Origin: Phoronis australis
Taxonomy: Eukaryota > Animalia > Phoronida
Assembly: GCA_002633005.1 (NCBI GenBank)
Contig: NMRA01000059.1
Span: 225,662-289,661, forward strand
Direction of reading: 5' to 3'
DNA: 64,000 nt
The notes under the pieces were generated by a model. It did no database searches. It saw only the letters and a list, made by a program, of their open reading frames with translations, and was not told the DNA's origin. Below, piece after piece: positions 14,297 through 37,863 of this stretch. Every line of letters begins with the position of its first letter. Position 1 is the stretch's first letter. The position numbers and the translations under genes were made by a program.

Positions 14297-14342
<46 letters not shown>

Positions 14343-17300: not shown

Positions 17301-20300
17301 CTCACATTATCCCTCTTTACTAATAACATTTTGTTCAGTTTTAAACTCATCCACAAATTTCATTGCTTGAAGGTTGTAAACTGCTGACTACTTACGGGGG
17401 TAAGTTTTTATTGTGTTCCCACAGACTAGAGCGGTTGACATTAAACCAAGGAAAGACATTAGCCATTTGCTGCAAAATACAAAAACATGAATAATGAACA
17501 AAAACTTCAAATAATAATGAGAGATCGTCTGAATCATTTAGGGTCATACTACTACAGTACACTGCAACAATAATCAGACAAAAAACACTCCCCTTCAAAA
17601 CCGGTAATGACCAGTCATGACTGGTAATGACCAGTCATGACTGGGCATTCTATATGTTGTGATGGTGAATTACACTTGTGCCCAGCCATTCTGACAGGGA
17701 ATCCCAGGTCATTTTGTCTGATTATTTTAAGTGGGTACAGCACATATTACTCCATCATCTGCCAAAGCATGGTTTCGTGAGGAATACAACATAAGAAATT
17801 TTACAGTAAAAACTCCTATAAGGTTGGCTTTGTATGCTTACTAATTCTTGTCGAAATATTTTACAAAGACTGATGAAAAAAGGAAAATTGTTCTATTGCC
17901 CAAATAATAACTAAGGTGTGTATTCATGATCATACTATTCCAGACATTTTATTTTGTAAACAGTCTACAAATGCCATATTCTCGTCTCTTTGTAGTTTTT
18001 GTTTTGCCCTTCAACCAGAAAAACCAATTTTGGTTTATCACACATTTTGGTGCCTTGGCCCAGATCAACTCAGACAAGTTGCCCTAAAAACAATTAATGG
18101 CAACGCATTTAGTAGCACTGAACGTATTGTTGAGATACTGTTTCATTGTTATCAGTATCAATAGGATTACATCAACAATACTGATGTGTGCACCGTCCTA
18201 GTTATAATTTATGAGTACACAGTCCAAGTTATAACTGGTGTGTACACAAGCCTAGTTATAAATGATGTGTACACAGTCCTATTAATGACTGATGTGTACA
18301 CATTCCTAGTTATAAGTGATCTGTACACAGTCCTCGTTACAAGTGATGTGTACACAGTCCTAGTTATAACTGTGTACACAGTCCTATTTATAACTGATGC
18401 ATACAGTCCTAGTTATAACTGATGTGTCACAGTCCTAATTATAACTGATGAGTACAGTCCTCGTTATAACTGATGTGTACACAGTCCTAGTTATAACTGA
18501 TGTGTACGCAGTCCTAGTTATAACTTATCCACAGTGAAAAAGAACATAAACTCACTGACTTGAATCAAACTCATTAGGGTAAATCACAAACCTTAATGAA
18601 CATTGACCGAACAGAGCTGGTGTTCTTTCGCAGGTTGCCGGGCAGTGATTCATTTTTCAATGCCTTCTGAATAATTCGCACCAAGTCATCATTGAATTGT
18701 TCCTGTGGAAATAAAAAGACCAACTACGATTGACAACCACCAATTAAAGCGACCACATACATTGTAATTTAAGACACATTTTAGTTAGAAATTATCGTTG
18801 ACAACCTGACAACTAAGTAACAAAAAATGGATTAGGTCATTTACTCTCATAACAAATTCTCATAACATTCATTAACATTATGAGCATTCCTTAACATTAT
18901 GAGCTTTCATTAACATGACGAGCTTTCATTAACATGACGAGAATTCACTAACATGAGATTTCATTAACATGATGAGCTTTCATTAACATGATGAGCATTC
19001 ATTAACATTATGAGCATTCACTAACACGATGAGCTTTCATTAACATGATGAGCATTCATTAAGAAACATGATGAGCTTTGATTTCAATTACTAACAACAA
19101 CATGAAAACCATCAGCGACTCAAGAAAATGTTTCTGAGTTTATTGACGTTGGCCAACACTAAAAATGCAATTTTGGACGCATGTATGCATGCTCTGGTTT
19201 GGAAATTGGCCAAACCTAAAAATATGAGTTGGAAAACAGCACATGGATGTATTTTCTGGTATGGAGATGGGCCAGGCGTAAAATATGAATTGGAAAACAG
19301 TGCATGTACACATTTGCTGCGACTTGAGTCAGTAACAAAAGTAGAATCCTGTCACAGTAATGAATATTATGAGACTCATTACATAACAGTAAAAGGCCTA
19401 ATTTAATATCGGTTTTACATCCAGATAAATAGGGTGAAATGGAGCTTTAACAGTGGCAAACTACTGGTTTACATCACAACACCTACTGTGTAATTCAACA
19501 TGTTTGAGTTGGCAAGAAGTCAACTTTATTTCAGTCAACTACGAATTGGTCAATTTTCAATAACATAAATCATCACAGCAAAAACTATTGTGGAAAAGAT
19601 CACATAGGCACAGTCGATCATACAGGCACCGTCAAAAGCACAAGAAGTAGTAAAACTAATTTACTCTTTAATGCTAGAACAAATTTGTTGACTTCTGAGT
19701 TCTCTAGTCAATTAGTTGGTTACCTCATGTTAAATAAAAGAACTTAAAACAAACATATTTCACATCAACCTACTTCCTCTATAGTGTTTGCTTCACTTAC
19801 ACTTTTACACTGTGAACTGCTGCAAGAAGTCAACATGACTAAGAGAGCTAGACTAAAAATAAGCAATGACTAACAACAAGCAATGACTATCAAACAGATC
19901 AAATAGAGCAGAATTGTTGACATCAAGACCTAGTTTGGCTCAAGAAGGAAATATATTCACTGTACCCCTTATGGAGCATGATGGCAGGGCTTTAGTCATG
20001 TCTGTGAAACAGAATGAGGTGATACGCTTAAGCAGAGTGGACACGCATGAACATATGTATTTAAATATTCTGGTGAATGTCAACAAGTGGGAAATTCTGA
20101 ATCTGTTGCAAGATGCGGGACTAAGCTTCAAAAATCAGGACAGTTGGCAAATATAATATTGGTTGATAAGACACGTCATTAAATACTTCAACTCACCACT
20201 GTTGTGTAGAGACCAAGTAAAGCTTTGTTCATCACAGTCTGCAAATCATATGGATTACTGGCTTCCCCACTTCCTTTTTCAGGTGTGGAAGGGAGACACC

Positions 20301-23300
20301 TGGCGAGCCGTACCTGAGGTAGCGCTACAGATGTAGACAACACCACCTGAGTAGATGTCAATGATGGTGAAGTAGTTTCCATAGAGCCAGAATGTTCAGT
20401 GTCATCTGTAGCCTTCATCAGACATGAGTCTGACTTACCAGGGTTAGAGCCAGAATGTTCAGTGTCATCTCCAGCCTTCATCAGACACGAGTCTGACTTA
20501 CCAGGGTTAGGCAGCACAGTATCATCAGAGACAGCATTCAGAACATTAGTCATCACGAGATTCTGGGAGTCTGAATTATTATCAACCTCACGTAATAATA
20601 AACTATTTGTTTCTATTGTTGCACATCTTTTCTCAATGTCAACCATACCAGTCTTACTATTGCCCAATGAAATCTGACTAGCTTCCATACTGCTATTACT
20701 TTGGTTGCCAGTCCTTTCTGATACAGTATTGTCAGTCACATGATCAGTCATGTGACCGCAACTAGGGTTAGTCTTGGTAGCATTGGAGACTATCACCTCA
20801 CTCCATTGCACTTGAGTATTGCTCAGCTCTCTTGAACACGTATTTTGTTTCCATTCACTGTCAACATTGTTCTTGTCCGACCCTGACTTACTGAGTTCCT
20901 CCCCCGTGCTACACAGTTCTTCTTTGTCCGAACAATCAGAGTCGTCATCCTCCTCAATGACCTTAACCGTGGCGCCTGACCTTAGTTTCTTGACCTTGGT
21001 CTCCTCCAGTGTAATCTCAGGCATCTCAAATACATTCCTGTAGATCATCTCGGGCTCAGATTTTGCAGTTTGCACAGACTTCAACTGAAACATGGTGAGT
21101 ACATAAAGGATCAAAAGAAAGTAGTCAACAGATGGCGCAATAATAAAAACAGTGCGTACAAGCATACCTTCTGATTTCAAAAGCTCGCCATGAAACTGAC
21201 CAAGAACACGGTTAGATAAAAAATTCTGAAAAATACTGATAAGTATATTTCCATGACTAGAATAATGATTTAGTCTCCAATTAAACTAACGAAGAGAAAC
21301 ATGTGAAAACAATAATAAAGTAATTTGGATTACGATTGCAATGAACACTAATTTACTATTTGTCATAATTACAATTATATCCCAATATACGATTTGGTAC
21401 ACTGAAAAGAACATCAAAAATTTAACGCTATGTGCGATTCAACAGAGCACAAATACCATGACAGTGAGACATAGGTGTCTCGATAACAGTCTGTGATAGA
21501 AAATATTATAAAACCTGAAAGTCTTCACCACAACTGTGTCTAGTGAGAAACATTATATTGATACTCACCACAGATGAGAATTTTTCCGTAGTCACCAAAT
21601 GTTGGGCACATCTGGCCCCTACAAGAGCCTTCATAACCGCAACACAGCCTTCTTGAACCTGCTTGTCCAACGTGGGGCGCCACAGGTCCATGCCAGTGTC
21701 TGGACAACAGTTCTTGCACGTATACTGGATGACCTCTTCAGGTAGGTATGACAAGATCTCGTACATCTCATCTGCAAACAGACCAAAATACTTAAGTAAC
21801 GTATTGGAGACCACAACTTTGTTATTGTTACTATGTGACTCAAAGAAGCATTAATGATGATAATTACGCCAAACATATCACATCACAGAAGAGTCTGCCA
21901 GCCTAATACATTGAACACACAATTGTAATATGTACTGTCACTAAGTGAAGTTTGAACATAAAGACAATGTCTATATTTGTTATCAAAAGTTGGAACACTA
22001 AGACAAATTGGAATGGTATAAGTAACATTTCAATATAAGAACAATTATTAGTGAACATACAGCATTGGTACAGGAGCTGGATTATGATCCAACAGAGGTC
22101 ACTCTACTAGTTTATGATCCAACAGAGGTCACTCTACTAGTTTATGATCCAACAGAGGTCACTCCACTAGTTTATGATCCAACAGAGGTCACTCTACTAG
22201 TCTACTAGATAATAAAACTGCTCTCAGACAGCTTTTGATTTGCGTCAGTTACGCAACTAACATTCTGCTTATTGACAAACACATATAACTGTTCACTCAA
22301 CACATGTTATGAGAAGGAACTACACATACCTGACATGTTCTCACACTTGGCATGTACCCTGCTGATACATACCTGACATGTTCTCACACTTGGCATGTAA
22401 CCTGCTGATACATACCTGACATGTTCTCACACTTGGCATGTACCCACGCCTCACACTTGGCACACTGTACCATCTTACTCTCCCAGTCATCATCCGAGTA
22501 GCACTTGCAGCAGATGGGGCAGTAGTTACCTGTCAAATATACAGCAGAGTCAACTAACATCTACTCACAATGAGGCAGCAGTTACCTGTTCAATATACAA
22601 CAGATTCGACGAACATCTACTCACAATGAGGCAGTAGACAAACATACAGCAGAGTTGACTAACATCTACTCACAATGAGGCAGTAGACAAATATACAGCA
22701 GAGTTGACTAACATCTACTCACAATGAGGCAGTAGACAAATATACAGCAGAGTTGACTAACATCTACTCAGAGTTGGCCAACAATGATTAGTGTTATCAA
22801 AGGAGCTGCCACTCTCACACATCTCCATGTATGCAAGAATAATCCTGCACTGCACCTTTGCAGTATGGACACATAAAAATACAATTTCAGCAGTGCAATA
22901 TCTGGTAGTCAAAACATTGGTTGCCAACCTCAAGTTGGCAAATGCAAACTCAACATCATTAACAGGCATTCCTTTGATGCCCTACTGGATCCAGTTCCTT
23001 CTTTACAGTAACTGTGTCCAATACTGAAGACTCCTAACACTAAAGAAATGGAAATATGTCTTTGACTTATGTTATCCATGTCTTGCACTTGTATTTTTAT
23101 TTTTTGTCTTGTGTTTGCTTTCATGTTTTTCTTTTATTTCTCTGTACTTGTGTGATTCTAATAAGCTTATTATCATTATCGTTATCATTGTTGTTATATA
23201 GAAGGCAGGTAAGGCACACAATCTCACTAACTCACCTTTCTGCATCAACTGTCCACATTCATAACAGAGAGAGAAGTCATACGTCCAGGAGCCTGAGGGG

Positions 23301-26300
23301 CCAGGTGTGGTGGCTCCACAACTACGACACTTGACACATTTACTACACACCTGAGATTAAATAAAAATGAGCTCTAATCAAAAACAGTATAACTGCTTGT
23401 TTTCAACTCCGAAATATTTTTTTCTAATTGAGTGAGTTATCTTCACAGCAAATTGCAGCTTTCAATATCGACATAATACACTTAGTTTGTGCACAGAATG
23501 TATTATTGTATCACTGACACTCTCTAAAACAGGATGCATATTTGTTGATCCTTCAAAGAGAAACAATAGGGGCAGATCACTTAGAGACAAAGCAAACAGG
23601 ATATATAAATATACGTAGCGACAGCTATACACAGACTGTTCAAGCTTCATGTTCAGAAAACAAAATCCTGACTGGAACTAAAAATAAGCTCAGAAAATCA
23701 CTACAGTCTCACAACTCACAACCATTATTTGATCCACAATTACAATAATAATGATTATGATGATGATAACAGTAGTGGGGTCATTCTTGAATACTTAGTG
23801 CTATTTTGAAATTTTTACAATAAGAAAACATGAGGATAGTCCAAGACAGGACTTACCCAAATATTTTTCTTGGTCGGTTTAGTGGGATACAGAGGCCCTA
23901 GACACTGTGGGTGATAGTGTTCATGGCAACGGTCACACTGCAACAGTTTCTGAAATAAACCAATATATGTTGATGTTGGTCAATCACTGTTAGTTCATTC
24001 ACTACATTCTAATGACCACCTTCAACACTGGCAGTTATTAACAAAATAAAATGAAACAAAATCAGACCTGTGTATCGCCAAACTGTTTTGGAGTATTCTG
24101 CATACCAGACTTGAAGACTTTAGTGAAGGTTGGATGATGGTAGTGAATATTCATAGAAGCGACTTCATGATTCACGAATTGTCATGTGACTGAAAATGGC
24201 TGACAACACAATGTCCACAGCCACGCCAACTTGAGTTATTTTTTAATCAAATTTAAGAAGCAGACATCATTTTTGAATTTTTAATCAAAAAGCAAGCACC
24301 CGCCTTCCATTTTAACGCTACACTCATCATTTCCATTATGCAATAGTTACAGAAACAAATGGATTAACTAAGTTGATTTGATGTGTATTTTTGAAGTCAA
24401 TACACACTTGCATACTACTAGTCAATTTCTCTGCTACTACGCCCGTTATACATATGATACACAGGTCTGCACAATAAAATGAAATGGTGCTGTCTAGAAG
24501 ACTTACATGTTACATCTGGTACAAAGGTCTGCACAACAGAATGAAACGGTGCTGTCTAGAAGACTTACATTTTACATATGGTACACAGGTCTGCACAATA
24601 AAATGAAATGGTGCTGTCTAGAAGACTTACATGTTACCTATGGTACAAAGGTCTGCACAATAGAATGAAACGGTGCCGTCTAGAAGACTTACATTTTTCC
24701 TCAGTCCACACACACTGCAGTAGCGACATTGTCGACAACACCAATTGGACACATCATCACTCTGCGGTCGCTCAGTCTCCTCCAGGCAAAACTCGTGAAA
24801 TGGCTCACAACAGATTGAGCAGAACAGAAACTATAAGGATAGAATGGCTGTGTGTCAACAATGGATCAACAAATGTAGAGAAATGGCTGCGTTCTCATTA
24901 ACAGACACAGAGAGTCTTACAACTACACTTTACACCTACAAAGAATATGAAACAAAAACTGTAAACATGCAAGCTAAACAAGTGATGTGAAAAACTTTTA
25001 TAACTGAATGTCAAGTCGTCAAAAATGAAATCTAATGAACTCCCCAACTAACCATAAAGGTCAAGGACAATTTACAAATGGCAAATACCCTCTAGCAGCT
25101 AAGCTTTGATTACAGTCCATCTCCTCAAGTTTTCAGGTCACCATAGACACTTGTTTACTGTATACAAGGGCAGGAGGACTTACCTGATGTTTACCAGCAG
25201 AGCCACACAGGTAACACAGTGTTCTGATACACATGGGTGTTGATGCAATGAGGGCCATACCATGTAACCAGGCAGTGTCTACATTATAGTCATCCTACAG
25301 AGCAACATTAATGAATCATAGAGTTACAAAGTAGACACACAAAGTACAATGACGTGTTAAAACAATGTTTGTTAGTTACCACAATATGTTTATTCCCGCC
25401 AACCAAACAGTTTTACTGAAAATGTCAATTCGCAAAAAATGACGAATCATATACTTGCCTTATGTGACTTGACAACATTAAGACACAACTGTAGAGTTGA
25501 ACAACAGACAGTATACGTTTACCTTCTTTAAACTATTTGACCAATTCTTTATCATCTCATCATTATACAAATCACCTTAAAGTTGGCCATGATCTTATGT
25601 TCTTTCCTCTTTGTCTCAAGATGTTTATCTTCCTTCTCTGACTCAAACTGCCTCACTATCAGGTTCTGACTATCCACCTTGTTCTTATCTGCCATCTTCT
25701 CTGCCTGTAACGTGTCACTCCCATGTATATATATATATATATATACCATAATACAGATGTGAATTTTATCTCCAGCAAAGGGCTTCAATAATTCATGAGC
25801 TACAGAATATGCACAACCAAAAAATCTACAGAATGGTACATAACCCTTTGTGATAAGATCTATATGACGGTGCAAAACCCATTGTAACAATTAGTGCTAT
25901 CCAAAGGAAGAAACTAGTCTATTTATTCACCAGAATCTGCAATGTGCATACATGTAGCTAAATTGTATCCAATTCCAAGTATAACAGAGACCACACTTTA
26001 CAGCAAATTGCTCCATCTAACTTTAAACAGATGCCAAACTTTAGAGGCTCTGATAGAAGATAGTGACAGTAACACACCAATCAACTGACAGTATACGAAA
26101 GAGTGACTATACACAAAGACCATGCAAGGAATAATTATCACTCACTAGTCTCTGGTTTTTTCTCTGTAAAAGCAATGTCTTCTTTTTCTTCAGCACATCA
26201 TCCATGTCCGCTTTCGTTTGACCTTTGCGTGACACGTTTTCATCCAACTTTACATCAGTATCAACCTCCCGCTGAGCATCAGTAAATCGGAATTCAATGT

Positions 26301-29300
26301 TTTGTCGAGCCCTCTTTGCTGTCTCATTTACTAAAGGGCTTTTATCTTTGCTTTCTTCAACAACTGGTGTTCGCTTTACTTTCTGTTGCCGTGGAGATTT
26401 TTCCCCAGCGTTCTCTTCAGCGTAGTGCGGATTTGTACATAGACGCAGACTTTAAAGATCCAAAAGTTACAATGAAAACAAAAAAACTTAACAAACATAT
26501 CAAAGGTCTAGACAATGTTGAAAGACTTGATCAATGCCAACCAGTCAACCAGGTTTGTTGCAAAGAAAAATCTGTGGAAGATTAACAAGTTGACAAAAAT
26601 GCGACATAGCAGGGATGTAGGCACACATGGTGCAGCAGAAGTACAGTCATACTTTTAGAGTTGTTTTAGATGTTCAGTGGAAGACTTAACAATTTTATTA
26701 TTGCATAAAACTACCACAAGAGCTATTTAACATTAACTATGGAAACTTTATTTTATAGAAAGTCAATAAACTATTAGAATTATAAATAGAAACCAACAAA
26801 GCAAAGTGAAGAAATAAGTAACAACTGTTTCAAACAACGATTCTATGTCTATTTCTAACACATGTAGCTTGCTAATACAACATTGGAGTTTAATAAATAT
26901 ACAAACTATAGTTGCAGATAATGTAAGCAGTTGGAAAGATTATACAGAAGATACAAAAAACACAAGAATAATTCTTATGAAATCAGTCCAGAAACTGAGC
27001 CAGCCATCACAGTTAGGGTCAAGGTCATGGTCAACGTCACGGTCACCATCACCACTAGTCAAACCACAACACTGAGTGGGTGTACATGGTTAGCAGCTCA
27101 GTGATAATGTTCTCTTGATTAGGAATTTTTCTTAAATGCATACTTTGAACAAAGTGTTAACACAAACACACAACAAAGTCGTTAAAGGAGAATGCCACCC
27201 GATTTAATTAGTTTTTTTTGCCCTCTTGATCAGTCTATATCCACATCGCCTCGCATATGGTCGACCTTACCTTGCCAAGAGGTGTCGCATTAACCTGTGA
27301 GGAAGGTGAGAAACGACGCTAGCGACGTCAGTGGTTCATCTGCAGAGTGAATGCCGCTATGTTGCGGTGCATCGTTCCCGCTTGTCTGAACTATGCAGCT
27401 GCGAGAAAAGCGGGTATATCGTTTGTTTCGACTTCCTTGAGAGACCGAAATGCTTAGGAAGTGGCTCGTGGTAGTGAAGAATGAAAAGTATGCTATAAAT
27501 AGCAAATATGAGGCCGTGAAACATCTCCGTGTCTGTGGCCTGCAGTTGTCGACAGTGCCTGATGAATGCCGGCTTACTATCCAATCCATACGTTCCGTTG
27601 TCTGAGCTTGTTCACGGCGCCTCTCTAGTATTTCTTCATCACTGTATTCCTGTTCGAATTGATAGCCCGTGAAACTTAACGATCCACCCGCTAAGTCTCC
27701 GTAGGGATTGACTGATGAGTTCTCATCTAAGTCAGGATTGCGAGTTGCCATGTTGATGTTTATTACTTAGCGTTCTGTTTCAAAATTATTATTCTCATCC
27801 TAACCAATACTTATATAAAACTGAAACAAAGTCTGCCTCATTAGATGCAATTTGTAATGCCTTTGGAGTGTTCGTGAAAGCAAAGACTTGAGAAGCCACC
27901 AATGAATAAATCACTGCGTTAACGGCTTTAGGTGCAATAAAACTAATTGACGGGACACCGAGGCCGTGTGAGCTCATGCTAATTTAGTGTTTGCTGGCAG
28001 AAACTGTTGTGAAACAACTCAGTCGATTTCCACCCCACGGCCTGGTGTTAGGGAAATCTTTATTCACATTTACATTACTCAAATAATGATTGTCAATGTA
28101 CAACTTCGGCCCTAAAGCAGAACCTAAATTCGTGGCTCCCGACAAGAAAGTAGATTTGCAGTTTCGTGGGTAATTCACCAACATAATCACGTGCGCATTA
28201 CTTTGGCTCACTAGTATAGTATTTTCTTGACTGGAAGTTTAGTTTCCAACTATGGCTGGTTTATGTTCGTGATGTCTGATCAGTTTCCGAGCCACTGAGC
28301 AGGATAGCGAGACAATCCGGCCGGCCGTGACGGGCCTGATCGGGCTCCGAGCCACTGGCCAGGATAACAAGCGTTTTGTGTGTTTCGAACTCAAAAACAA
28401 CACAGATCTGGGTTATCCTGTCCATATCTCACGAAAAATATTTCGAATTTGTCTCCGAACAGACCCCAAACTCCTGCTACGGACCTTATTGGTCTGCGGA
28501 ACTTTGTAGGCTATGGTGTGTCCAAATACCAATAAATCCGTAACAGCGAAATATAACAACATGTTTTTATAAGAACGCGGTGTACTTTTAAGGGTTTTAC
28601 ATCGAAGTTTGATGATTTATTGGTGTTAAACGATGAATTCAAGCGATAAGCTGACACCAGTTACCCGTGTTGTGAACTGCTGAACAGATTGCGTGTGAAA
28701 CCAATTACGTCATTGGATAATTTCAACACCTCCGTCTGCCGTCAGGTGTCAGGTAACGCAACCGTACGTGCCGTTATGGAGCAGAACTACTTGATCTAAA
28801 TTGATAAAAATTAGGTTGTTTTTTGGGTGGCATGCTCCTTTAAAACAATAGGTATGTCAGGCACTGTAATTAGGACAAATCCAGGTCACCAGTCCAATTA
28901 GCCCGACATGCTCTGTGATGTAATTGTACCAAATTAACAATGACAAGTAATCAGACTAAAATACTGTGTAATGTATTATAAACAAAGATTGGTTTTAAAA
29001 ATGACACCATACGCCAAATGTAACAGTTACTGTTGCAATAAAACAAACTTGTATGCCAGTAATAAGTCAAATATTTTGACTTCATGAGTTTCAATTGAAA
29101 ACAACAAGTGGTTAAATAAAAAAAGCTCATTTAGAATTTCTGAAATCCACAATATTGAGGTATGGTGAATTTTTTGAAACACTACATAACTAATAAGATT
29201 CGTCAGTTTAACAGTTCTCAGTAAGTTAAAGGCAGGAAAGTCTTGTGTGTAGGCAGGAGGCTCTGTGGATACTCATAAATGATTGGCTCCACGATTGGAT

Positions 29301-32300
29301 ATGTGACAAATGGGAGGCTTTGTGATTGGATATGTGACAAATGGGAGGCTTTGTGATTGGATATGTGACAAATGGGAGGCTTTGTGATTGGGTGATTGGC
29401 ACGTGGGTGTCTCTCTTGATTGCATCACTCAGATAAAGAGGGTTCCATGACAAGAAAACAGGCAAGTGGGTGACAGTGACTAAACGACGACAGATTGAGT
29501 CACTATTCAACATGTTCAGAAATATGCACTAAAACTATAGCACACACACACAAACACACACACACACCTGTGAAAGCGAGTTATGACCAAAACCAAGCAT
29601 CAAAAGAACCAAGACAAAAAGCTACAACCTAAGCTATCCAAACTCCAACTTACTTGCACGACTGTTTTAACACACCCCGTCCGCCAAATTTTGGCATATC
29701 TCTGAAAAATTCAGCACGATATTTTAGCATGACATTCAACCTCAACTTACACGCAGGCTTGTTTCATGGTTCCTGGTCCGCCAAACTTTGGTTTATCTCT
29801 GAAATGATTAGCACAGTCAAGAAGCAGAGCCTGCACTAGGTTCACTGACATTGCGTTAAAAGATCATATTCAAAAATAGACAAGTAAAACTGCAGAGAAC
29901 AACTGGTATGGGCACTAAAGGGAAGTATAACGACGGACTTGAGAGAGGTAAACAATTGAAATAAAAACTCAATAATCATAGTAACGATATGCTACTTTCA
30001 TTTGAAGGAATATGCCAGAGTGCCATTGATTCCATTCAATCTCATCACTTGTTTACTTACAGACAATTTCTGCAGGTGCCACAATCTGGTGTGTTACATC
30101 CTTTACACTGGTTACAACGCATTCGTCGCTTGCGTCTGCCACTTGGTAACCTGGGTGCATTTTCATCAGCAGACAGCCCGACCTTGACCTTGACATCTTG
30201 ACCCACCTGTTCACTGATAGGCACCTCGTCCATGTTGTCTTCTGTAACACAGTATGCTCAACAAAATACAGCGACCTTCACAAACGTGCGCATTGCTTGA
30301 AAGCAGTGCACAGCACAACTACGAAACATGTGCCCATTTAGATCTATGAGTCTCAATATATAAAGATGTGCTTGGATCATTTAGATCTATGAGTCTATAT
30401 ATATGTAAAGATGTGCCTAGATCATTAACTAGACACGTGTCTATATGTGAAACACTTCAGTAAAACCAGGGAACCAACTCATAAACTATTTTGCAAGTGC
30501 AACTTGACTTTTCCTTTAACAATGCTACATGTTGACAATACTCAGTAGGACATACTATTAACATTAGCAAGACAAAGTCTTGATATTAGGCTCAAGACTG
30601 CAATACAAATATAAACATGTGGGCGCATAAAAATAAGACTGCATTGATGGCTCCACATTTCATGAATTTCAAAATTGACCAAAGAAATCCAAAAACAAGG
30701 AGGCAAGCGTAAAAAAGCCAAAGGTGGAGTGAAAGAGGATTGCTCACCCTTTTCCCTGGCATCCTTTTCTATAATTTTATGCTTGTACGTGTCTGGTAGT
30801 GCACTTAGATGGAACTCAGGTTTAGAATCAAACACAGCTGGTGACCCCAGAGCTATGGCTTTCTTACGACACACATGTTTGATCCGTGGTCCTCGACCTA
30901 AAGGAAAATGGAGAATAGACAAGTGGTAACACTAAAATATAGAATGAATATAACAAAGATGATGGGTCACAAAACAACATTATCTAGAAAGCAAGACGGC
31001 TTCAGCACAATTTCCTAGTCCGCATTGTTTTACACATGACTTTGGGACATTAATTACAAATCTATGCTTAGTCAAAATTGTTGGTGCGTTGAATTTCAAT
31101 TCAAAATGAGGTTAAATCGAATAAATCAAATAAGTCTAATGAAAAACTCTGAACTAACTTAACATTATATATTAATACAAACTATAGCAAACAGAAAACA
31201 GACAAAGTAATTTTGAATTCCATAATGTCCAATAATATTAATACGCGTTGAATACATTGTTTCCATATTGAACTCTCAGGACTATTTTTAACAGCGCCCT
31301 CTGCACTCAGACATGGAAAGTACAAAGAGTAGGTCAATGTCGATTCAACGTCGCTAACGGGCTTGATCATAAAACTTTCCAACAATAGCGTAAAGTTCCA
31401 AAATGGCAACACTATAAATAACACTAAACATGCAATCAGGTACCAAACATAACATCTGGTAAAAAACTGTTACTTTTAACACTTCTGTCTCAGTTTTATT
31501 TGTTACAATATATCGTCTGCAACTCAGGTGCCAATCCCTCGGTAACTAAAATGTTGAATATAGATGGTAATTACTTTCAAAAATGTAAGAAGTTCAGTGC
31601 GCAGTTACTGTTGTTGTCATCTTTGTTATCTCTTTTCAAGTCATAAATCATTACATTTAATACTGTTTTTTTACTAAAGTAAACTTATAGCATCACGCGC
31701 AAGTACATACACTACAGGTTCTGATACGCCACATAAAGTCTGGGTGAAGTATTTCAAAAATGTACCAAATAATCAAAGAAACTAAGAGCTTGAAGTATTG
31801 AAGTATAAAGGATGAATGCCTTCGTTCTCAGTCGATAAGTAGAATAAGGTCGAGTGGGATCATGATATTATTTCATTTAGGCCACTCACAGTATGTTTTG
31901 TGTACTTCTAATGAAATGACAAGTATTGTTAATTCAATACCTGAGGAGGCAGATGCCACACTACTGGCNNNNNNNNNNNNNNNNNNNNNNNNNNNNNNNN
32001 NNNNNNNNNNNNNNNNNNNNNNNNNNNNNNNNNNNNNNNNNNNNNNNNNNNNNNNNNNNNNNNNNNNNNNNNNNNNNNNNNNNNNNNNNNNNNNNNNNNN
32101 NNNNNNNNNNNNNNNNNNNNNNNNNNNNNNNNNNNNNNNNNNNNNNNNNNNNNNNNNNNNNNNNNNNNNNNNNNNNNNNNNNNNNNNNNNNNNNNNNNNN
32201 NNNNNNNNNCCATAGGTGGACAAGTACTTGCGGTAAAACTTGCGACAACTGTCACAACTGGGAACACCATAATAGAGGCCATTACTTGACATACACAGCC

Positions 32301-35300
32301 GAAGGTGACCGCACACTGCACATCCCACCCCTGAAAATACGACAGCCACTAAAGTAATTCACAAAGAGTCTTCCCTAGCCCAGGAAGTTGCAAGGTAAGA
32401 ACAGGAAATGGCCGTCAACAAAAAAATTATATTTGCAAATATCTGTCGTTTAAAGAATGTTCACCATTTATTTTTGCATTACTCGAGACATAAACTAGGT
32501 AGACCCGTGTCTAATTATAAAAAATCCTCCACATAACCTTACAGATCAACAAGCACCAAATGATCCTACAGTTCCCCCTGAGGGCCGTAACTGGAACTGA
32601 CACAGAGGTGCTCTACTTTGCAGTGGACAGGACAGGGCAAAATGACATGCATTTCAAAGTCAAACTATGAATAGATCTTACTTTATGTGTTTGAACACAG
32701 TGGATTTGCTCCTCATCAGTTACAAGACAACCAAGAGTCAGTCATGTCACCTGACCACAAACTATAGTTTTGTAAACATCATAAATTCCGTGTTATGTTG
32801 CGTTGGCATAAGAATGACATTCAAGCAGAATTGTGATCCAGGATAGTCAACAATACAAACTAGACAATAGCTAGTAAAACTGCAACAGCACAGTGCCCAT
32901 GTGTCAATTACATCCAACAGCACTGTGCCCATGTGTCATTTACATCCAACAGCACTGTGCCCATGTGTCATTTATTTACATCCAACAGCACTGTGCCTAT
33001 GTGTCATTTAGATCCTGTTACAGCTGTACATGCACAGACAATGTCACGTTTTCAACACAGGTTGATGACAAGTGAAAGCACTGGATCACAGTCCAATATT
33101 TGAAAAGCGCGAGTTTTTCTGCCCTTCTTCAAGATGATTGAAATACAGGTATGTGCACTTTTTATTCATTGGCTCTAAAAAACATTCTGAGCAAAGTGAA
33201 CCTAATGTACAAGTAGACATAAGTAACTTAGTTGTTAGAATTGTAAGAGGAAAATTAGGGTGTGAAAACATGATGAAAAGTTTGAACCATCAGATTCAAC
33301 GTCAGTTATACTGGTGAAGTACTTATTGATTATAAGTTAATATTTTTCAGGAAACGATGCAGTGGAACCACGTCATGTGGCTCCCTCTATTGCACATCAT
33401 TCAGTGTTCTCCAAGACCGCTTTCAATGTGTCGCAGCGTCCTGTTTGGCCGAAGGCACATCCTGTTTAAATGCCCCGCGTCCTGTTTAAAAATGCCGCGA
33501 CCGATTTAAAAATTAGACCAGTTTGGAAAAATGGCGTCGGCATTGTTAATAAGGTCTTCATTGGCTCAAACAATGCTTGACAGCAACTGCCCATAGCCCA
33601 TTGAAAATGATAAATAAGAGCTAAGTGGTCAATTGTCGAAAAAATAATCACGAATCTAGCTCAAGCGGCAGACTGGGCCGCTCGTCTATTTATGGTGCAA
33701 TGTCGCTTGTAAATAATTGCTCAATCATCTTTTGGGTGACCCGAATTTTATTTTCGTAGTACATTTTTCAATATTCCGTGGGCCCCACGACACTGGTCTG
33801 ACTTACCGACGCCAGTCTCAACCTTTGCATGGAAACGCTTTTGATGACTCTTATTGGTTGTTGTTTGGCATTTCTCACTTGGATGAATATTATTGGTTAC
33901 TATTGGTGCATTGAGACAGATTGAGCTCATCTTATTGCCTTCTAGGGAGTTTTGTTGGCAGCTTGAGCATTATATCTGTAGCCCATACTCCCTCTGAAAA
34001 CCTGCTAAGCCAATCGCAACTAACTCACCTTACGTAGCGGCGTGTGCGACGTTTGCGGTTTCGGGGGAGTAATGCCGAGATTTGAGACAGCTAGTTCAAT
34101 AATATATGTCTCGCGGTGAGAAACTGTAGCCAAAATCACGTGCTCTCATTGAAAGCGCACGGTAATATCTTGCGTAATCTCGCAAAGTCTAGTCTGGCTT
34201 CAGTTACTGATTAACATGCACATTCTACATACTTAGTAATGTCGTCTGCCGTGTGAAGGCGTAGAAAGACTGCGAAGAATCATTTTAAAAACCGAGAGAT
34301 GTTTCAGATATTGACAATGACTCACACGCCGATAAGACAGATCCACATGGTGGCGACACTACCAAATCGCAAATATCCGTGCCATTAACGGTGGACTGAA
34401 TTTTTTTCAACTGACAACATCCAACATCGGCATTCTTACAATTCTCTTGAACTTGAGAATAAATAGTTCTCAGCTGGAACAATGAGTTGGTGACAATCCT
34501 GAAAATTGTGGGAATGCCGGAGTTGCAAGTGTATAACAATCCAGTCGATATCTTTCTAGAAATATTGCTTTTCATCAACAGGCCTAACACTCCTGTCCAT
34601 GTAAATGGAAAACGCACGTTTACTCCACTTTATTCATGATGCAAGACTCGCATATTGTGCACTTTTTACAAGAATTTTGGTGGTGCACAGGTTTAGTGTT
34701 GTACCAACTTCAGAACATCGAATTCAGACAGACAATGTGGGCCGGAGTATTGAATATAAGAATGCTGTGCAAGACATTAGACTGAGAGAAAACGTAGACT
34801 TGGCTGTCAACACATATAAAAATGCGACTGGCTTTACCAAGACACTTCACTCGGACGGTCTACTTCGTGGGAAAAGTTTAGCTCAATGTTAGACTTTTTG
34901 GACTTGGTTGACAGTGACATCACAAGAATTAAGCAAAATATTTCCGCATACTGTTTCAAACACGTCTGCGTAGACTTGCATTTCAAAGTCATTGACTAAA
35001 CAAATGTTTTTTGTGATATGTTTGTGAATAAGTCCACTGCCACCTTTTAAAAATAAAAAGTTGAACAAACATAGTTATTTTTTGCACTACTGTGCATTAC
35101 TAGCCTACTGAGAGCGTTGACTGTCGCGCGGTTCTGGCATGTTTGTAGCAGTTTTTACGCGCACGACCTGCTTAGATTTTCAGATGTGGAGAACACAGTG
35201 ATTAAAATCAAGTAAGATATGATCACAAGCTTTCAATAGTTTTGATTGAACAGCTACACAACAATCTGAACCATTTTTGGACGTTTGTACAATGAGAACG

Positions 35301-37863
35301 CTATCAAGATCTAACAATTAACTCTGCTTAGTAAGTATGAGAAGTACGTCATCTCACCCTCATGGGACAGATTACTCTTCGCGGCTCCTTTCACTACAGT
35401 CTTGTCTGACTGCACCTGTGTTTTTTTCTTCAGCAGTTGTTGTTTCGCCTTCTGAACAATCTTCAAGTATTTTTTGCTACCACATCGCTTCTCGTCTACT
35501 TTCCTTGTTGTTGCTGTTTCCCGGGCAAACCGAATCGCTGAATTTTCATCCAAAACCTGTGTGAAAAATAAGCAGTTGCAGTCACAAAACACAGAACTTT
35601 AGGTAACACTCACTCGCTCTGAAAAATGAACAAAACAATGTTTAGTGAACATGATTATGCTTTGAATAAATCAAAGTAATTTGTACATAAGTCAATGGTT
35701 TTGTCCAAATCTATTCTAACTTCACCTCTTTCCGTTTTCCAGATTTTCGTTTATAAAGTTCTGGAGCACCAGTGGTCAACTTGTTCACCAATTTCACAGA
35801 AGGCTTCCTTGACCTTTTGCCCTCAGCAACATGTGGAGAGTCCAGTAATGTAATGGAATTCTGTTCATCATAAACAAATAATTTAGATGACTTCTCAGGT
35901 GTTGTGCTGTTTCCAATGGATACATCCAAGTTGTCTGAGAGTGGCTTCACTCGAGTGAACACAGACCGAGACTTAAACTCTTCCTCAATAAAACGCTTTG
36001 ATGGAATTATCGTCCTTGATGACCGTGAACTTTTTTCGGGAAGAACAAATTTATGAGGGGTCCTTTTGTGTACAATTGTTGGTGATGGACCATCTGGCCC
36101 ACTCTTATGCTGTGCTTTAGTCTTAGCCAGTTTGTTGTACTTATCACCAATCTTCTTGCCAGGAAGGACTCCCTTAGCAGATTTATTTTCCAAATATTTT
36201 CCAGGCACTTTTTGTAATCTCTGCAACTTTTTCTTCTCTTTGAGTTTGAGCTGCTTTGCCAACTTAGCCCTTGTATTTTCCTTCAACTGTTTCTTCATTT
36301 TCTGCATCTTCTTACGTTTAAGTCTCTTGACTTGCTCAGAAGATTCAAAATCTGAATCAGATTCAAGTTGATACAACACTGCCTTGACTGATTTCTTCTT
36401 CTTTTTCTTTTTGTGTTTTTTATCTTCTTTCTTATACTTTGAAATCAAATTACTCAACTTTTCATGCTTTTTAAACACCAACCCTGGCTGTTTGACTTTG
36501 TACTTGGCCTTGAATATTTGCTTTTGAGGTTTAACTCGTGTCTGTGTTGTGGGATCACTAATGTCTATCATGGAACACTTGACAACACCCTTTCTAGCCT
36601 TCTGGGCCAGACCTTCTTCAATCAATCTTTTATAAGACTTTTGCATGCGTTTCCTTTTGCCATCTGGTGTCGGCTGCAGTTGGAGCTTTTCCAATTCAGG
36701 ATCTTCCTCATCATCAGTTATTTCAACCATTTTCTCGGCCATTTTGTACATCATGTTCAGACGTTTTTCACTCTGCCGAATTTCCAAATCAGTGAATCCA
36801 ACAAACTCATCTTCCTGCAAAATATACAAATGATTAATGTGCATGTAATCCTTTTAACACGTTTACAACAATGGGAATTAAAATGTAACTAAAGTCAGTT
36901 TTTAATGATATTCCTTGCTGTTCTACCAGTCATTCCATTAGTCACTCCTGTACTGCAAGCTGCTTACAATCACCCTTTGGATAAAAAGAGAATTACTTTG
37001 AGTTATGACCACTTTTGGATATAACATTGGTCTCAACTCGTTCCTTGAACTCAGATGAGTAATGATATATTGGCTATAGTGACAATTGTGTAGTGAGACC
37101 ATGCTGTGTTAGTCTTCCTATAGTTATCTGGCCTGGCTAGTGTTGTATCACCAGCACATAATAATGTTGTAGACGTGCTTCTAGTGAATCATGTCAGCCT
37201 CCGTTAGCCACTCACTAATGGGCAATTGAATGGTTAGCAAGCTTGCCAATTTTATTGGGGTCTCTGCTCTGGTTCAACGCGTAATCTCGGAAAATACTAC
37301 AATAGCACAAAACCCGGCCATTACACTCCTTTCCTTTAGACTGTCTATGGTGCATTCACTGCAGAGACTTTTCTAACAGGGTTGACATATTTTGTTGTAG
37401 GTGCAGTGATCTAGGCCCAGTTGCTACGTGCTCTCACAAGGATGATTGAAATAAACATGCAGAAATGAGAAATTAATTCACCAGACGTAGACGATATTTT
37501 TCGTCTTGATTAAAGTGAGCAACGTAAAGTAACTTTGATCTTAGAATGATGAAAGGGGGATAAACATTGTAGTGAAACATAGTTGAAAATCCATCGAGCA
37601 CAACTTCAATAATTCATTCATCTCTATCACTCAATAAACCATCAACTGGTCAACTGTCTCACTGAAAACGGGCCCAACACCATGGGAGACTTTACCTCAT
37701 CTGAAGCACCAAATAGTTCATAAAACGTAACAAGACCACGATGCACATTAATCAAGATTTCAGTCTTCCCATCTGCCGATTTTAAGCCATCATCGACAAC
37801 GTATTTGGGGTCAGTTCTGTCAAATCTCGGACCAGGTCGGCCAGGAAAACGTAAGCTCGCCAT
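501..37863 (-). CDS. trx: Trithorax / MLL1-2 (KMT2A/B-type) histone H3K4 methyltransferase gene, multi-exon, 3'-truncated at the window edge (FYRC/SET not in window)
   Basis: 33 GT-AG exons with continuous phase. Diagnostic motifs in order: RFPGRP (menin-binding), FxGF (LEDGF-binding), GPRIKHVCR, CXXC with KFGG, PHD1-3, atypical bromodomain, ePHD (WVHVNCALWSAEV), FYRN. Confidence 0.97.
1509..1643 (-). CDS. trx: trx exon 31 (KARPTHKS...DKRP)
   Basis: tttcag|G and AG|gtattg, phase 2-2. Confidence 0.72.
2016..4651 (-). CDS. trx: trx exon 30: AT-hooks (RGRPPK, AGRPRK) and large P/S/T-rich region
   Basis: 884-aa ORF; ttccag|AAC and AG|gtgggt. Confidence 0.9.
4774..4900 (+). mobile_element. Possible tRNA-derived SINE head
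   Basis: A-box-like TGGCTCAGCAG and B-box-like GGTTCAAGTTC about 45 nt apart; does not form a full tRNA. Confidence 0.4.
5442..5680 (-). CDS. trx: trx exon 29: C2HC zinc finger (FRCSKCQAEYRTKQSRDRHAQSC)
   Basis: cattag|GC acceptor; donor AAG|gtgatt at 5442, with an in-frame alternative GAG|gtgagg at 5556. Confidence 0.82.
6352..6408 (-). CDS. trx: trx exon 28 (SAKKDAKCDAEDEECEQE), putative
   Basis: ttgtag|TT and G|gtaatg, 57 nt, phase 1-1. Confidence 0.65.
6959..7330. other. Assembly gap (N run)
   Basis: Run of N. Confidence 1.
7331..7812. mobile_element. Helentron-associated (HINE/DINE-1-like) non-autonomous repeat
   Basis: CCACTAGGTGGC and AAATTTCATGAAAATCC modules, (GGAC)n microsatellite, terminal hairpin TGCGTCCACATAT..ATATGTGGGCGCA followed by an A-run. 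Confidence 0.55.
8128..8184 (-). CDS. trx: trx exon 27 (LRASAVRLAEEVDENILK), putative
   Basis: tttcag|GA and G|gtttgt, 57 nt, phase 1-1. Confidence 0.6.
8200..8455. repeat. 28-bp tandem repeat
   Basis: Unit AACCATATCTTACAAAGG(T/A)GATATTG(A/G)T, about 9 copies. Confidence 0.9.
9290..12283 (-). CDS. trx: trx exon 26: large low-complexity exon (about 998 aa)
   Basis: 1037-aa ORF; tttacag|AT and G|gtaaga; phase 1-1. Confidence 0.9.
12567..12805 (-). CDS. trx: trx exon 25: FYRN (CARVYWSTSDFRRRTVYTCRV)
   Basis: ctccag|C acceptor; donor G|gtactt inferred from the phase of the next exon. Confidence 0.88.
13290..13368 (-). CDS. trx: trx exon 24: FYRN (GSLTVECLG...LIPVGF)
   Basis: tatacag|GT and AG|gtagga; a duplicated acceptor lies 30 nt upstream. 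Confidence 0.92.
13657..13777 (-). CDS. trx: trx exon 23: ePHD-FYRN linker (FSVLRRVCIN)
   Basis: ttgtag|CCA and G|gtatgt, 121 nt. Confidence 0.9.
13937..14095 (-). CDS. trx: trx exon 22: ePHD/PHD4 (RCNVC...GATVGCC...NFHFMCS)
   Basis: attcag|AGG and CAG|gtaagc, 159 nt. Confidence 0.96.
14298..14340. repeat. (AAT)n microsatellite
   Basis: Direct reading. Confidence 0.95.
14430..14785. repeat. About 32-36-bp tandem repeat
   Basis: Unit ACACTGAGTGAGTGTTCATTCAAAGA(T/C)CAGA. Confidence 0.9.
14795..14932 (-). CDS. trx: trx exon 21: ePHD (EAGRLLY...WVHVNCALWSAEV)
   Basis: ttacag|GAA and TTG|gtaaga, 138 nt. Confidence 0.96.
15141..15435. repeat. 50-bp tandem repeat, about 6 copies
   Basis: GTGAGCAAGG recurs every 50 bp from 15141 to 15391. 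Confidence 0.95.
15600..16140. mobile_element. Second copy of the HINE-like repeat family
   Basis: CCAAATTTCCTGAAAATC, GGACGGAC and GCATAATGCGCCCAC motifs shared with 7331-7812. Confidence 0.45.
16469..16608 (-). CDS. trx: trx exon 20: start of ePHD (DNRRCLLC...GD)
   Basis: atttag|CC and AAT|gtaagt. Confidence 0.9.
16852..17000 (-). CDS. trx: trx exon 19 (NAILPPTVDHTYAQW)
   Basis: cttcag|A and G|gtgagc; conserved MLL motif. Confidence 0.92.
17396..17469 (-). CDS. trx: trx exon 18 (QMANVFPWF)
   Basis: ttgcag|CAA and CC|gtaagt; resembles MLL1 QMERVFPWF. Confidence 0.92.
18180..18525. repeat. About 27-bp tandem repeat
   Basis: Unit ACTGATGTGTACACAGTCCTAGTTATA. Confidence 0.9.
18592..18702 (-). 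CDS. trx: trx exon 17: bromodomain (EQFNDDLVRIIQ...VRSMFIK)
   Basis: ccacag|GAA and AAG|gtttgt, 111 nt. Confidence 0.92.
18865..19080. repeat. About 19-20-bp tandem repeat
   Basis: Unit CATTAACATGATGAGC(T/A)TT. Confidence 0.9.
20197..21084 (-). CDS. trx: trx exon 16: long low-complexity bromodomain loop insertion ending PYDLQTVMNKALLGLYTTV
   Basis: tttcag|TTG and GTG|gtgagt, 888 nt. Confidence 0.9.
21569..21771 (-). CDS. trx: trx exon 15: end of PHD3 and start of atypical bromodomain
   Basis: DEMYEILSYLPE...YTCKNC matches MLL1; ttgcag|AT and GTG|gtgagt. Confidence 0.94.
22082..22201. repeat. 30-bp tandem repeat, 4 copies
   Basis: Unit TTATGATCCAACAGAGGTCACTCTACTAGT. Confidence 0.95.
22325..22445. 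repeat. 43-bp tandem repeat containing the exon 14 end and donor site
   Basis: Copies start at 22325, 22368, 22411. Confidence 0.92.
22416..22529 (-). CDS. trx: trx exon 14: PHD3 (GNYCPICCKCYSDDDWESKMVQCAKCEAWVHAKCE)
   Basis: tgacag|GT and G|gtatgt, 114 nt. Confidence 0.95.
22518..22775. repeat. About 49-56-bp tandem repeat derived from the exon 14 acceptor region
   Basis: Unit AATATACAGCAGAGTTGACTAACATCTACTCACAATGAGGCAG, about 5 copies. Confidence 0.9.
23236..23350 (-). CDS. trx: trx exon 13: end of PHD2 and Cys-rich linker (VCSKCVKCRSCGATTPG)
   Basis: tctcag|GTG and G|gtgagt, 115 nt. Confidence 0.95.
23857..23949 (-). CDS. trx: trx exon 12: PHD2 (LLQCDRCHEHYHPQCLGP)
   Basis: tttcag|AAA and TGG|gtaagt, 93 nt. 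Confidence 0.95.
24458..24695. repeat. 62-bp tandem repeat containing the exon 11 GTAAGT donor, 4 copies
   Basis: ACTTAC at 24501, 24563, 24625, 24687. Confidence 0.92.
24693..24830 (-). CDS. trx: trx exon 11: PHD1/PHD2 (CSICCEPFHEFCL...WCCRQCRYCSVCG)
   Basis: ttatag|TTT and AAT|gtaagt, 138 nt. Confidence 0.95.
25184..25294 (-). CDS. trx: trx exon 10: start of PHD1 (LCYLCGSAG)
   Basis: ctgtag|GAT and CAG|gtaagt, 111 nt. Confidence 0.93.
25576..25704 (-). CDS. trx: trx exon 9 (...EHKIMANFK)
   Basis: ttacag|GCA and AAG|gtgatt, 129 nt; resembles MLL pre-PHD1 HRIRVDFK. Confidence 0.85.
26146..26449 (-). CDS. trx: trx exon 8: last Cys of CXXC (LRLCTNP) plus linker
   Basis: Phase-2 entry at ctttaaag|T, open for 101 codons to CTA|gtgagt. 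Confidence 0.82.
27186..28839. mobile_element. Internally deleted Kolobok-type DNA transposon
   Basis: TIRs AGGAG(A/C)ATGCCACCC at both ends, TTAA on both flanks (27182-85, 28840-43), degenerate THAP domain on + strand and KolX-like ORF start on - strand. Confidence 0.85.
27359..27552 (+). pseudogene. Degenerate THAP zinc-finger fragment of the Kolobok transposase
   Basis: MLRCIVPACLN...GIS / FRLP*ETEMLRKWL...LRVCG, with a frameshift and a stop. Confidence 0.75.
29293..29390. repeat. 31-bp tandem repeat, 3 copies
   Basis: Unit GATTGGATATGTGACAAATGGGAGGCTTTGT. Confidence 0.9.
29654..29701 (-). CDS. trx: trx exon 7b: CXXC DNA-recognition loop variant B (DMPKFGGRGVLKQSC-N)
   Basis: 48 nt; gaatttttcag| acceptor; AA|gtaagt donor; phase 2-2. 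Confidence 0.88.
29751..29798 (-). CDS. trx: trx exon 7a: CXXC DNA-recognition loop variant A (DKPKFGGPGTMKQAC-V)
   Basis: 48 nt; tgctaatcatttcag| acceptor with branch-point-like CTAAT; GT|gtaagt donor; phase 2-2. Confidence 0.9.
30061..30241 (-). CDS. trx: trx exon 6: N-terminal half of CXXC zinc finger
   Basis: Hand translation RRKRRMRCNQCKGCNTPDCGTCRNCL; donor CT|gtaagt, phase 2. Confidence 0.93.
30748..30897 (-). CDS. trx: trx exon 5: SNL2-like motif
   Basis: GRGPRIKHVCRKKAIALG...LSALP matches the MLL motif; tttag|GT and G|gtgagc. Confidence 0.93.
31941..32330 (-). CDS. trx: trx exon 4 (spans N gap): nuclear-receptor-type C4 zinc finger
   Basis: CAVCGH...YYGVPSCDSCRKFYRK; ttttcag|GG acceptor; frame resumes after the gap to CAG|gtattg. 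The gap could hide an intron. Confidence 0.75.
31969..32209. other. Assembly gap (N run) inside trx exon 4
   Basis: Run of N. Confidence 1.
32884..33010. repeat. About 31-bp tandem repeat
   Basis: Unit CATCCAACAGCACTGTGCCCATGTGTCATTTA. Confidence 0.85.
33402..35198. mobile_element. Probable hAT-type DNA transposon relic
   Basis: Ends CAGTGTTCTCCA / TGGAGAACACAG (near-perfect TIR); internal decayed CCTNFRTS motif resembling the zinc finger of ZNF862-like hAT transposases; no clear TSD. Confidence 0.5.
35358..35556 (-). CDS. trx: trx exon 3 (KIVQKAKQQL)
   Basis: acag|GTT acceptor, G|gtgaga donor, phase 0 to 1. Confidence 0.85.
35726..36814 (-). CDS. trx: trx exon 2: EDEFVGF LEDGF-binding motif, Lys-rich region, SNL1-like motif
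   Basis: ttgcag|GAA acceptor, GAG|gtgaag donor, 1089 nt; KFVLPEKSSRSSRTIIPSKRFIEEE resembles MLL1 SNL1. Confidence 0.92.
37696..37863 (-). CDS. trx: trx exon 1: MASLRFPGRPG... menin-binding motif and start of LEDGF-binding region
   Basis: ATG at 37863; RFPGRP resembles MLL1 RFPARP; donor GAG|gtaaag, phase 0. Confidence 0.93.

Follow-up and report, generated by a model that had tools for sequence, protein, structure and literature searches.

Does one trithorax/MLL (trx/MLL) gene encode two enzymes that hold DNA with different loops of their CXXC zinc finger, and is the choice of loop made by splicing? The question is raised by two homologous short exons, 7a and 7b, that lie in tandem within a trx/MLL gene of the phoronid Phoronis australis, on a stretch of 64,000 nucleotides (hereafter the window). 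The original prediction, made from sequence, read these exons as mutually exclusive and as giving one gene two histone methyltransferases with different DNA-reading loops. The positions of exons 6, 7a, 7b and 8 on which it was built, including the 49-nt gap between the two copies, all hold (Table 1).

Table 1. Features of the trx/MLL locus, numbered from the first letter of the window.
Feature	Position	Strand	Description
trx/MLL gene body	2009..37863	-	conserved N-terminus, C4 zinc finger, CXXC, PHD1-3, ePHD, FYRN-like piece, long exons
exon 6	30061..30241	-	trx/MLL; basic N-terminal stretch and CXXC Cys1-6; phase-2 end
intron exon 6-7a	29799..30060	-	262 nt; GT..AG; joint 30061-29798 in 3 reads with 3 starts (run X3)
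exon 7a	29751..29798	-	48 nt; CXXC linker, DNA-binding loop, Cys7
intervening intron 7a-7b	29702..29750	-	49 nt
exon 7b	29654..29701	-	48 nt; encodes DMPKFGGRGVLKQSC(N)
exon 8	26146..26449	-	CXXC Cys8 and linker; 3' end placed at a putative GTGAGT donor
non-autonomous DNA transposon-like insertion	27182..28843	.	in the 7b-exon 8 intron; ~1.66 kb; 19-nt terminal inverted repeats

The host gene

The gene shares 15 collinear tblastn blocks with each of three full-length molluscan trx proteins and has the domain order of KMT2A and KMT2B (CXXC, PHD1-3, extended PHD, FYRN). PHD (in two exons), zf-C4 and zf-HC5HC2H score above the Pfam cut-off; zf-CXXC and FYRN are partial matches below it, the FYRN piece being weak. 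Pfam domains and the collinearity with annotated trx together bear out the assignment to trx/MLL, and the product is likely a gene-activating histone-marking enzyme. Within the 64-kb window no tblastn match to a SET domain was found, and the gene likely runs beyond the left edge. A protein search with exon 6 alone returned no match among 6 length-limited candidates. A tree of 561 residues, from a set with no named annelid or brachiopod, places the window among lophotrochozoans, outside the cluster of sampled molluscs and nemerteans, with weak support (bootstrap about 60).

Several other features of the stretch are recorded here. A further trx exon (32212-32325, reverse strand) encodes a nuclear-receptor-type C4 zinc finger above the Pfam zf-C4 cut-off and runs into an assembly gap (31969-32209); such a finger is annotated in several molluscan trx proteins and is absent from the vertebrate ones listed. 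The introns that follow PHD exons contain tandem repeats made of copied exon ends and donors (24449-24697 and 22324-22445). A second gene lies head-to-head with trx (about 38800-62200, forward strand). It has coiled-coil exons and a calponin-homology-like piece (53692-53964; weak filamin matches, E 0.3, and no Pfam match), and it may be dixin/DIXDC1-like. A near-identical duplicated stretch around a single N at 59091 (58560-59852) is possibly an assembly artefact.

Anatomy of the duplicated exon

Exon 6 ends with Cys6 and two further bases, followed by GTAAGT, and the starts and ends of reads coincide with its borders. Its Pfam zf-CXXC match (positions 3-27, E 0.001) stays below the whole-domain cut-off because the exon encodes only half of the domain; its best PDB match is the KMT2A CXXC structure 4nw3. 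Exon 8, with an AG upstream of its first base, follows 7b after an intron of 3.2 kb. As predicted, 7a and 7b are homologous, of equal length and of phase 2/2, each with a TTTCAG acceptor and a GTAAGT donor; they thus have the layout expected of mutually exclusive exons, being related copies in tandem that agree in length and phase and have splice sites of their own. Either exon alone completes an eight-cysteine CXXC domain; joined by coordinates, the 7b product reads ...RNCL-DMPKFGGRGVLKQSCN-LRLCTNP. The reading frame is also kept when both exons are included or both are skipped, and nonsense-mediated decay is therefore, as claimed, not what would enforce exclusivity. Retention of the 49-nt gap leads to a stop, and double inclusion places 16 extra residues and a second Cys between the zinc ligands.

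The two copies are identical at 32 of 48 nucleotides and 10 of 16 residues and have KFGG, KQ, an Asp and Cys7 in common. Over 15 codons, pS is 0.69 and pN 0.20. These values, together with the use of the exons in reads, uphold the view of old, selected copies and rule out a recent neutral repeat as their source. The synonymous differences that had been cited for this are present, "several" being slightly generous for three of ten shared residues that use another codon. The loop-exon pattern occurs at exactly two places in the window, even with two mismatches allowed, and in none of 100 shuffles. Hence there is no third copy in the window, and a chance origin of the pair is excluded.

The loop exon in other genomes

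Metagenome contigs were scanned with a 48-nt exon pattern demanding D, K-F/Y-G-G, Q and C, so that divergent exons (for example the first exon of locus L027) are detectable only beside a strict match. Of the 32 loci found, three, all bivalve-type, carry the exon twice in tandem, and the other 29 have it once. Two of the pairs (L003 and L020, of one species type) encode PGLAKQAC followed by PGVIKQCC, with gaps of 55 and 56 nt; the flanking exons match the trx genes of Mya, Mactra and Ruditapes with E-values down to 1e-40. The third pair (L027, bivalve-type) encodes PGTIKKAC followed by AGVLKQCC across a 70-nt gap. Its second exon is identical to that of L003 at 42 of 48 nucleotides, and the locus presumably belongs to a trx gene. 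In all three sequenced pairs (window, L003/L020, L027) Cys7 of the first exon is preceded by Ala, and Val occupies the position of I1184 (KMT2A numbering) in the second, a shared pattern that hints at one origin. An exon tree over 48 columns has one well-supported branch among 17 inner branches, and AU tests of four exon groupings reject none (p 0.09-0.27). These analyses neither confirm nor reject a single origin of the pairs.

The single exons fall into a 7a-like type (11 loci; a five-residue Cys spacer where seen, PGTSKQSC in 10 of 11) and a 7b-like type (18 loci; DM..GG.GV.KQAC). The only loop exon of L010, L018 and L031 has 14 of 15 residues in common with 7b; 7a is identical at 13 of 15 to L002, Lytechinus and oysters. 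Other trx exons are present on L013, L005 and L031. The loop thus widely occupies a phase-2 exon of its own, which would make it easy to duplicate. Scans of prokaryote genomes and viral contigs with the pattern gave no matches.

Annotated proteins add a further case. Among 30 protein clusters listed, 15 contain at least two members with a CXXC (for the ray, 15 of 19 members were listed; for the frog, 6 of the 15 listed members were examined). Two loops occur in one of these 15, that of the acorn worm Ptychodera flava, and a single loop in the other 14, including all nine molluscan clusters with Ruditapes among them; in the vertebrate proteins compared, each protein and each isoform set has a single loop. 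The P. flava KMT2A-like models come from automatic annotation: X1/X2 (XP_070548619.1, XP_070548620.1) and X3/X4 (XP_070548621.1, XP_070548623.1) are pairs of equal length whose only differences are three residues in the CXXC segment. As all are from one contig, they would represent alternative exons. The two loops agree with each other at 12 of 15 residues and with 7a or 7b at 6-9 of 15, and the pair may be a separate duplication. Thus the paired design recurs in relatives, as it should if the prediction is right, namely in L003/L020, in L027 and in the P. flava isoforms. No protein with two loops in tandem was found among those compared.

The bivalve annotations may record different members of an exon pair: the Sinanodonta and Potamilus models share 14 of 15 residues with the first exon of L003, Mya shares 13 of 15 with its second exon, and both Mya and Ruditapes share 13 of 15 with the second exon of L027. 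One Ruditapes model (P0319) has a four-residue insertion at the junction of loop exon and exon 8, which is an alternative splice site at that border.

In several molluscan trx loops, RK or KK is found in place of KQ; the proteins and the locus concerned include P0176, P0185, P0189, P0186, P0214 and L027:392-439. The Gigantopelta loop has KNGG instead of KFGG. To judge from these sequences, molluscan trx may on more than one occasion have lost its CpG reading or had it altered.

Predicted consequences of the swap for DNA binding

In type-1 CXXC domains, KFGG is described as structural and without base-specific contacts (PMC3685328), and KQ, together with the preceding residue's backbone, recognises CpG (PMC3685328, PMC3072069, PMC3032784). 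The CpG-reading tripeptide is rigid, its first residue touching DNA via the backbone (PMC3685328, PMC3072069). The claim that the KFGG...KQ segment reads CpG accordingly stands for the KQ dipeptide but not for KFGG, which PMC3685328 presents as structural. Each isoform has the eight cysteines, the KFGG and the K/R-Q that define a type-1 ZF-CxxC (PMC3685328). The base-contacting side chains, equivalent to K1186 and Q1187, are identical in 7a and 7b, and both domains are predicted to bind unmethylated CpG.

Six positions change, at the equivalents of K1176 (K in 7a, M in 7b), R1182 (P, R), I1184 (T, V), K1185 (M, L), C1188 (A, S) and K1190 (V, N), all in KMT2A numbering. The net loop charge is +2 for both exons, with one positive charge shifted from 1176 to 1182. 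The swap alters three equivalents of backbone-contacting residues, K1176, K1185 and K1190. According to PMC9249231, K1176 and K1190 make electrostatic DNA contacts and K1185-Q1187 hydrogen bonds, and supplement rows of that paper list K1176A and K1185A as compromising binding. Human KMT2A R1182P, I1184V/T and C1188A are listed there without effect, so that three of the six exchanges may have no consequence. A coordinate table in the same paper was considered as a source of human exon borders; it runs continuously, without jumps, and is useless for introns.

Since both exons keep KQ, altered affinity or altered flanking contacts are to be expected rather than two specificities. The predicted difference in CpG read-out between the loops is thus not the default expectation, and the swap likely tunes the grip on DNA rather than the sequence read-out. 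The reading towards which we lean, with some reserve, is that the tandem loop exons are used either-or and yield two full-length trx enzymes with the same Lys-Gln and a different grip on the backbone. The two enzymes would both read unmethylated CpG through this Lys-Gln, and they would differ in how they hold the backbone and hence in binding. That the exon has been doubled or swapped in three animal groups suggests repeated selection on the loop, and the 7a/7b pair is real and probably functional.

The strongest alternative takes the exons as exclusive but interchangeable, a short tandem duplication locked in by its geometry, both copies staying intact because they are used and their proteins binding DNA alike. 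The common KQ, KFGG and net charge would fit, as would the tolerance of several swapped positions in humans (PMC9249231); in addition, near-identical single counterparts serve alone elsewhere (L010 for 7b, 14/15; L002, Lytechinus and oysters for 7a, 13/15), and one copy suffices in most lineages. However, the pair has persisted until its silent sites were nearly saturated, such pairs are found in three or more animal groups, and the exchange at the K1176 equivalent hits a residue that is needed for KMT2A binding (PMC9249231). We consider such interchangeability unlikely. More improbable is a true switch of specificity, with one isoform reading unmethylated CpG and the other having an altered read-out or tolerating methylation. 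L027, with KK in its first and KQ in its second exon, is the one case that points to such a stronger switch, and Gln is absent from the annotated loops of Pinctada, Littorina, Babylonia, Biomphalaria and Bulinus. Against it, the two exons of the window, the two of L003 and the two P. flava loops all have K/R-Q, and the tripeptide is rigid, with a first residue that contacts DNA by its backbone (PMC3685328, PMC3072069).

Splicing of the pair

The whole intron between 7a and 7b is 49 nt long, and any branch point therefore lies less than about 50 nt from the 7a donor. The best branch-like adenine of the window is some 27 nt away from that donor, and the best candidates in L003, L020 and the window lie at 27-31 nt. 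The steric threshold between 5' splice site and branch point is given as about 50 nt (PMC7969005), a vertebrate-based value below which the window falls because of the length of the intron. Introns of about 49 nt are, however, spliced in some invertebrates. The spliceosome would thus likely be unable to join 7a to 7b, and steric exclusion is the likely mechanism; the 70-nt gap of L027 may be spliceable. Introns before the first loop exon measure 307-1731 nt (18 measurable loci), so that it is the gap between the exon copies alone that is short. Elsewhere in the trx gene, conserved coding blocks are separated by 18 further gaps of about 220 nt or more (approximate lengths). With regard to RNA structure as the means of exclusion, folding of 371 nt gave nothing unusual (z 0.27); in a pairing scan, made with no control, the best helix was one of 13 bp over the 7b acceptor.

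RNA evidence comes from three stranded raw-read runs of one study (X2, X3 and X4), of each of which about 18% was used; run X1 had zero depth on trx exons. A first read mapping was dominated by the intronic transposon, with 15 of 61 joints listed. The reads show two fixed differences from the window in the 181 nt of exon 6 and hence are from the same or a very close species. Run X3 contains two exon-6 haplotypes, four of seven reads having five extra differences (30061-30241).

In X3, three reads with distinct starts join exon 6 to 7a across GT..AG and continue beyond 7a, where the consensus of their loose ends equals the first 8 bases of exon 8. Hence 7a is included and 7b skipped. Three reads cover 7b, two in X2 and one in X4, and all stop at the 3' edge of the exon; one X2 read and one X4 read start exactly at 29654, and the second X2 read, of 48 letters, was deduced from bin depth. 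X2 and X4 have zero depth on 7a. The partner exons of the 7b reads were not seen, the downstream one presumably being exon 8. The six spliced reads of the three runs include no exon 6-7b joint; neither a 7a-7b joint nor double skipping is among the joints listed, which start at three reads. In X3, two unspliced reads of 151 nt that extend into both flanking introns, probably one pre-mRNA fragment, account exactly for the only depth across the 49-nt gap. Of the junctions proposed as a check, 30061->29798 and 7a-exon 8 were seen, but 30061->29701 and 29751->29701 were not represented. The reads thus show 7a spliced in alone (three reads) and, for 7b, sharp exon edges (three reads), with no spliced co-inclusion seen.

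The split of 7a and 7b between runs (3/0 versus 0/3; Fisher p 0.1) is not significant and only suggestive of exon choice. The reads are few but consistent with mutual exclusion. Exon 7b is likely the alternative to 7a, with predicted junctions to exons 6 and 8. It is improbable that 7a is the working exon and 7b a minor one, used after 7a or in one haplotype only: the missing exon 6-7b joint, the presence of both junctions for 7a alone and the differing exon-6 haplotypes of the runs would agree with this, but in X2 and X4 reads fall on 7b while 7a has zero depth, 7b has full splice signals and is identical at 14 of 15 residues to an exon that is the sole one elsewhere, and inclusion after 7a would lengthen the stretch between the zinc ligands by 16 residues, with a second Cys among them.

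Two further observations concern RNA from introns. Stranded depth of 2-4 is seen in trx intron sequence at 30528-30691 and 29052-29215, which may reflect retained introns or transcripts that end before or within the CXXC domain. Reads from many copies pile up on the transposon in the 7b-exon 8 intron and end loosely at 27182 and 28843; its RNA is abundant in the runs, in both directions. The insertion is not part of the exon switch.

Meaning and comparison with known systems

Beyond the reading of two trx enzymes with one Lys-Gln and different backbone grips, we tentatively consider a wider scenario, possible though doubtful, of an old and overlooked trx/MLL splice switch. The loop would occupy its own 48-nt exon throughout the invertebrates, and early or repeated duplication of that exon (in this animal, heterodont bivalves and acorn worms) would have set a strong loop against a weak or non-CpG-reading one. 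By choosing between the two, cells would direct H3K4 methylation to other targets according to tissue or stage, and single-exon lineages would have kept one type or the other. Invertebrates are, to our knowledge, without vertebrate-style CpG islands in the strict sense. Isoforms that differ by six loop residues offer a natural test of the role of the CXXC finger in targeting invertebrate Trithorax.

The original prediction knew of no earlier description for trx/MLL, and full-text searches gave none either: mutually exclusive or alternative exons in the CXXC domain of trithorax, MLL or KMT2A were not found (most subscription papers, and the supplements of genome papers, lie outside the body searched), nor was any paper on the evolution of the trithorax CXXC in molluscs or annelids. 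Either-or exons in DNA-binding domains are already known; we could not find a loop swap in the CXXC finger of a chromatin enzyme, which is apparently undescribed.

The closest relatives in protein terms are KMT2A and KMT2B, whose type-1 ZF-CxxC (4nw3, 2kkf, 4pzi; described in PMC3685328) shares with the gene studied here the eight cysteines, KFGG, KQ and the domain order. The vertebrate KMT2A and KMT2B proteins compared have one loop, whereas here the loop has its own 48-nt exon in two copies. The P. flava models X1-X4 resemble 7a and 7b in being isoforms of the same length that differ only within the same CXXC segment, but are known from automatic annotation alone. In splicing terms, the OGDH exons 4a and 4b, a sterically enforced mutually exclusive pair described in PMC7969005, are likewise duplicated, with a branch point less than about 50 nt from the upstream donor and an intervening intron that is evolutionarily short. 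In OGDH, however, distant branch points lie in a longer intron, whereas in the trx pairs the whole intron measures 49-70 nt (PMC7969005 for OGDH). Unlike OGDH, the trx pair affects the DNA-binding loop of a chromatin enzyme. For either-or exons that swap part of a DNA-binding surface, FOXP1 (18/18b) and TCF3 (E12/E47) are known examples, and in these sequence-specific factors the swap changes sequence preference or dimerisation. In specificity-switching exons of this type, base-contacting side chains would differ between the exons, which is seen here only in L027 (KK versus KQ) and not in 7a/7b. In contrast to FOXP1 and TCF3, the trx exons 7a and 7b keep the core base-reading residues, and the protein that carries them is a histone methyltransferase.
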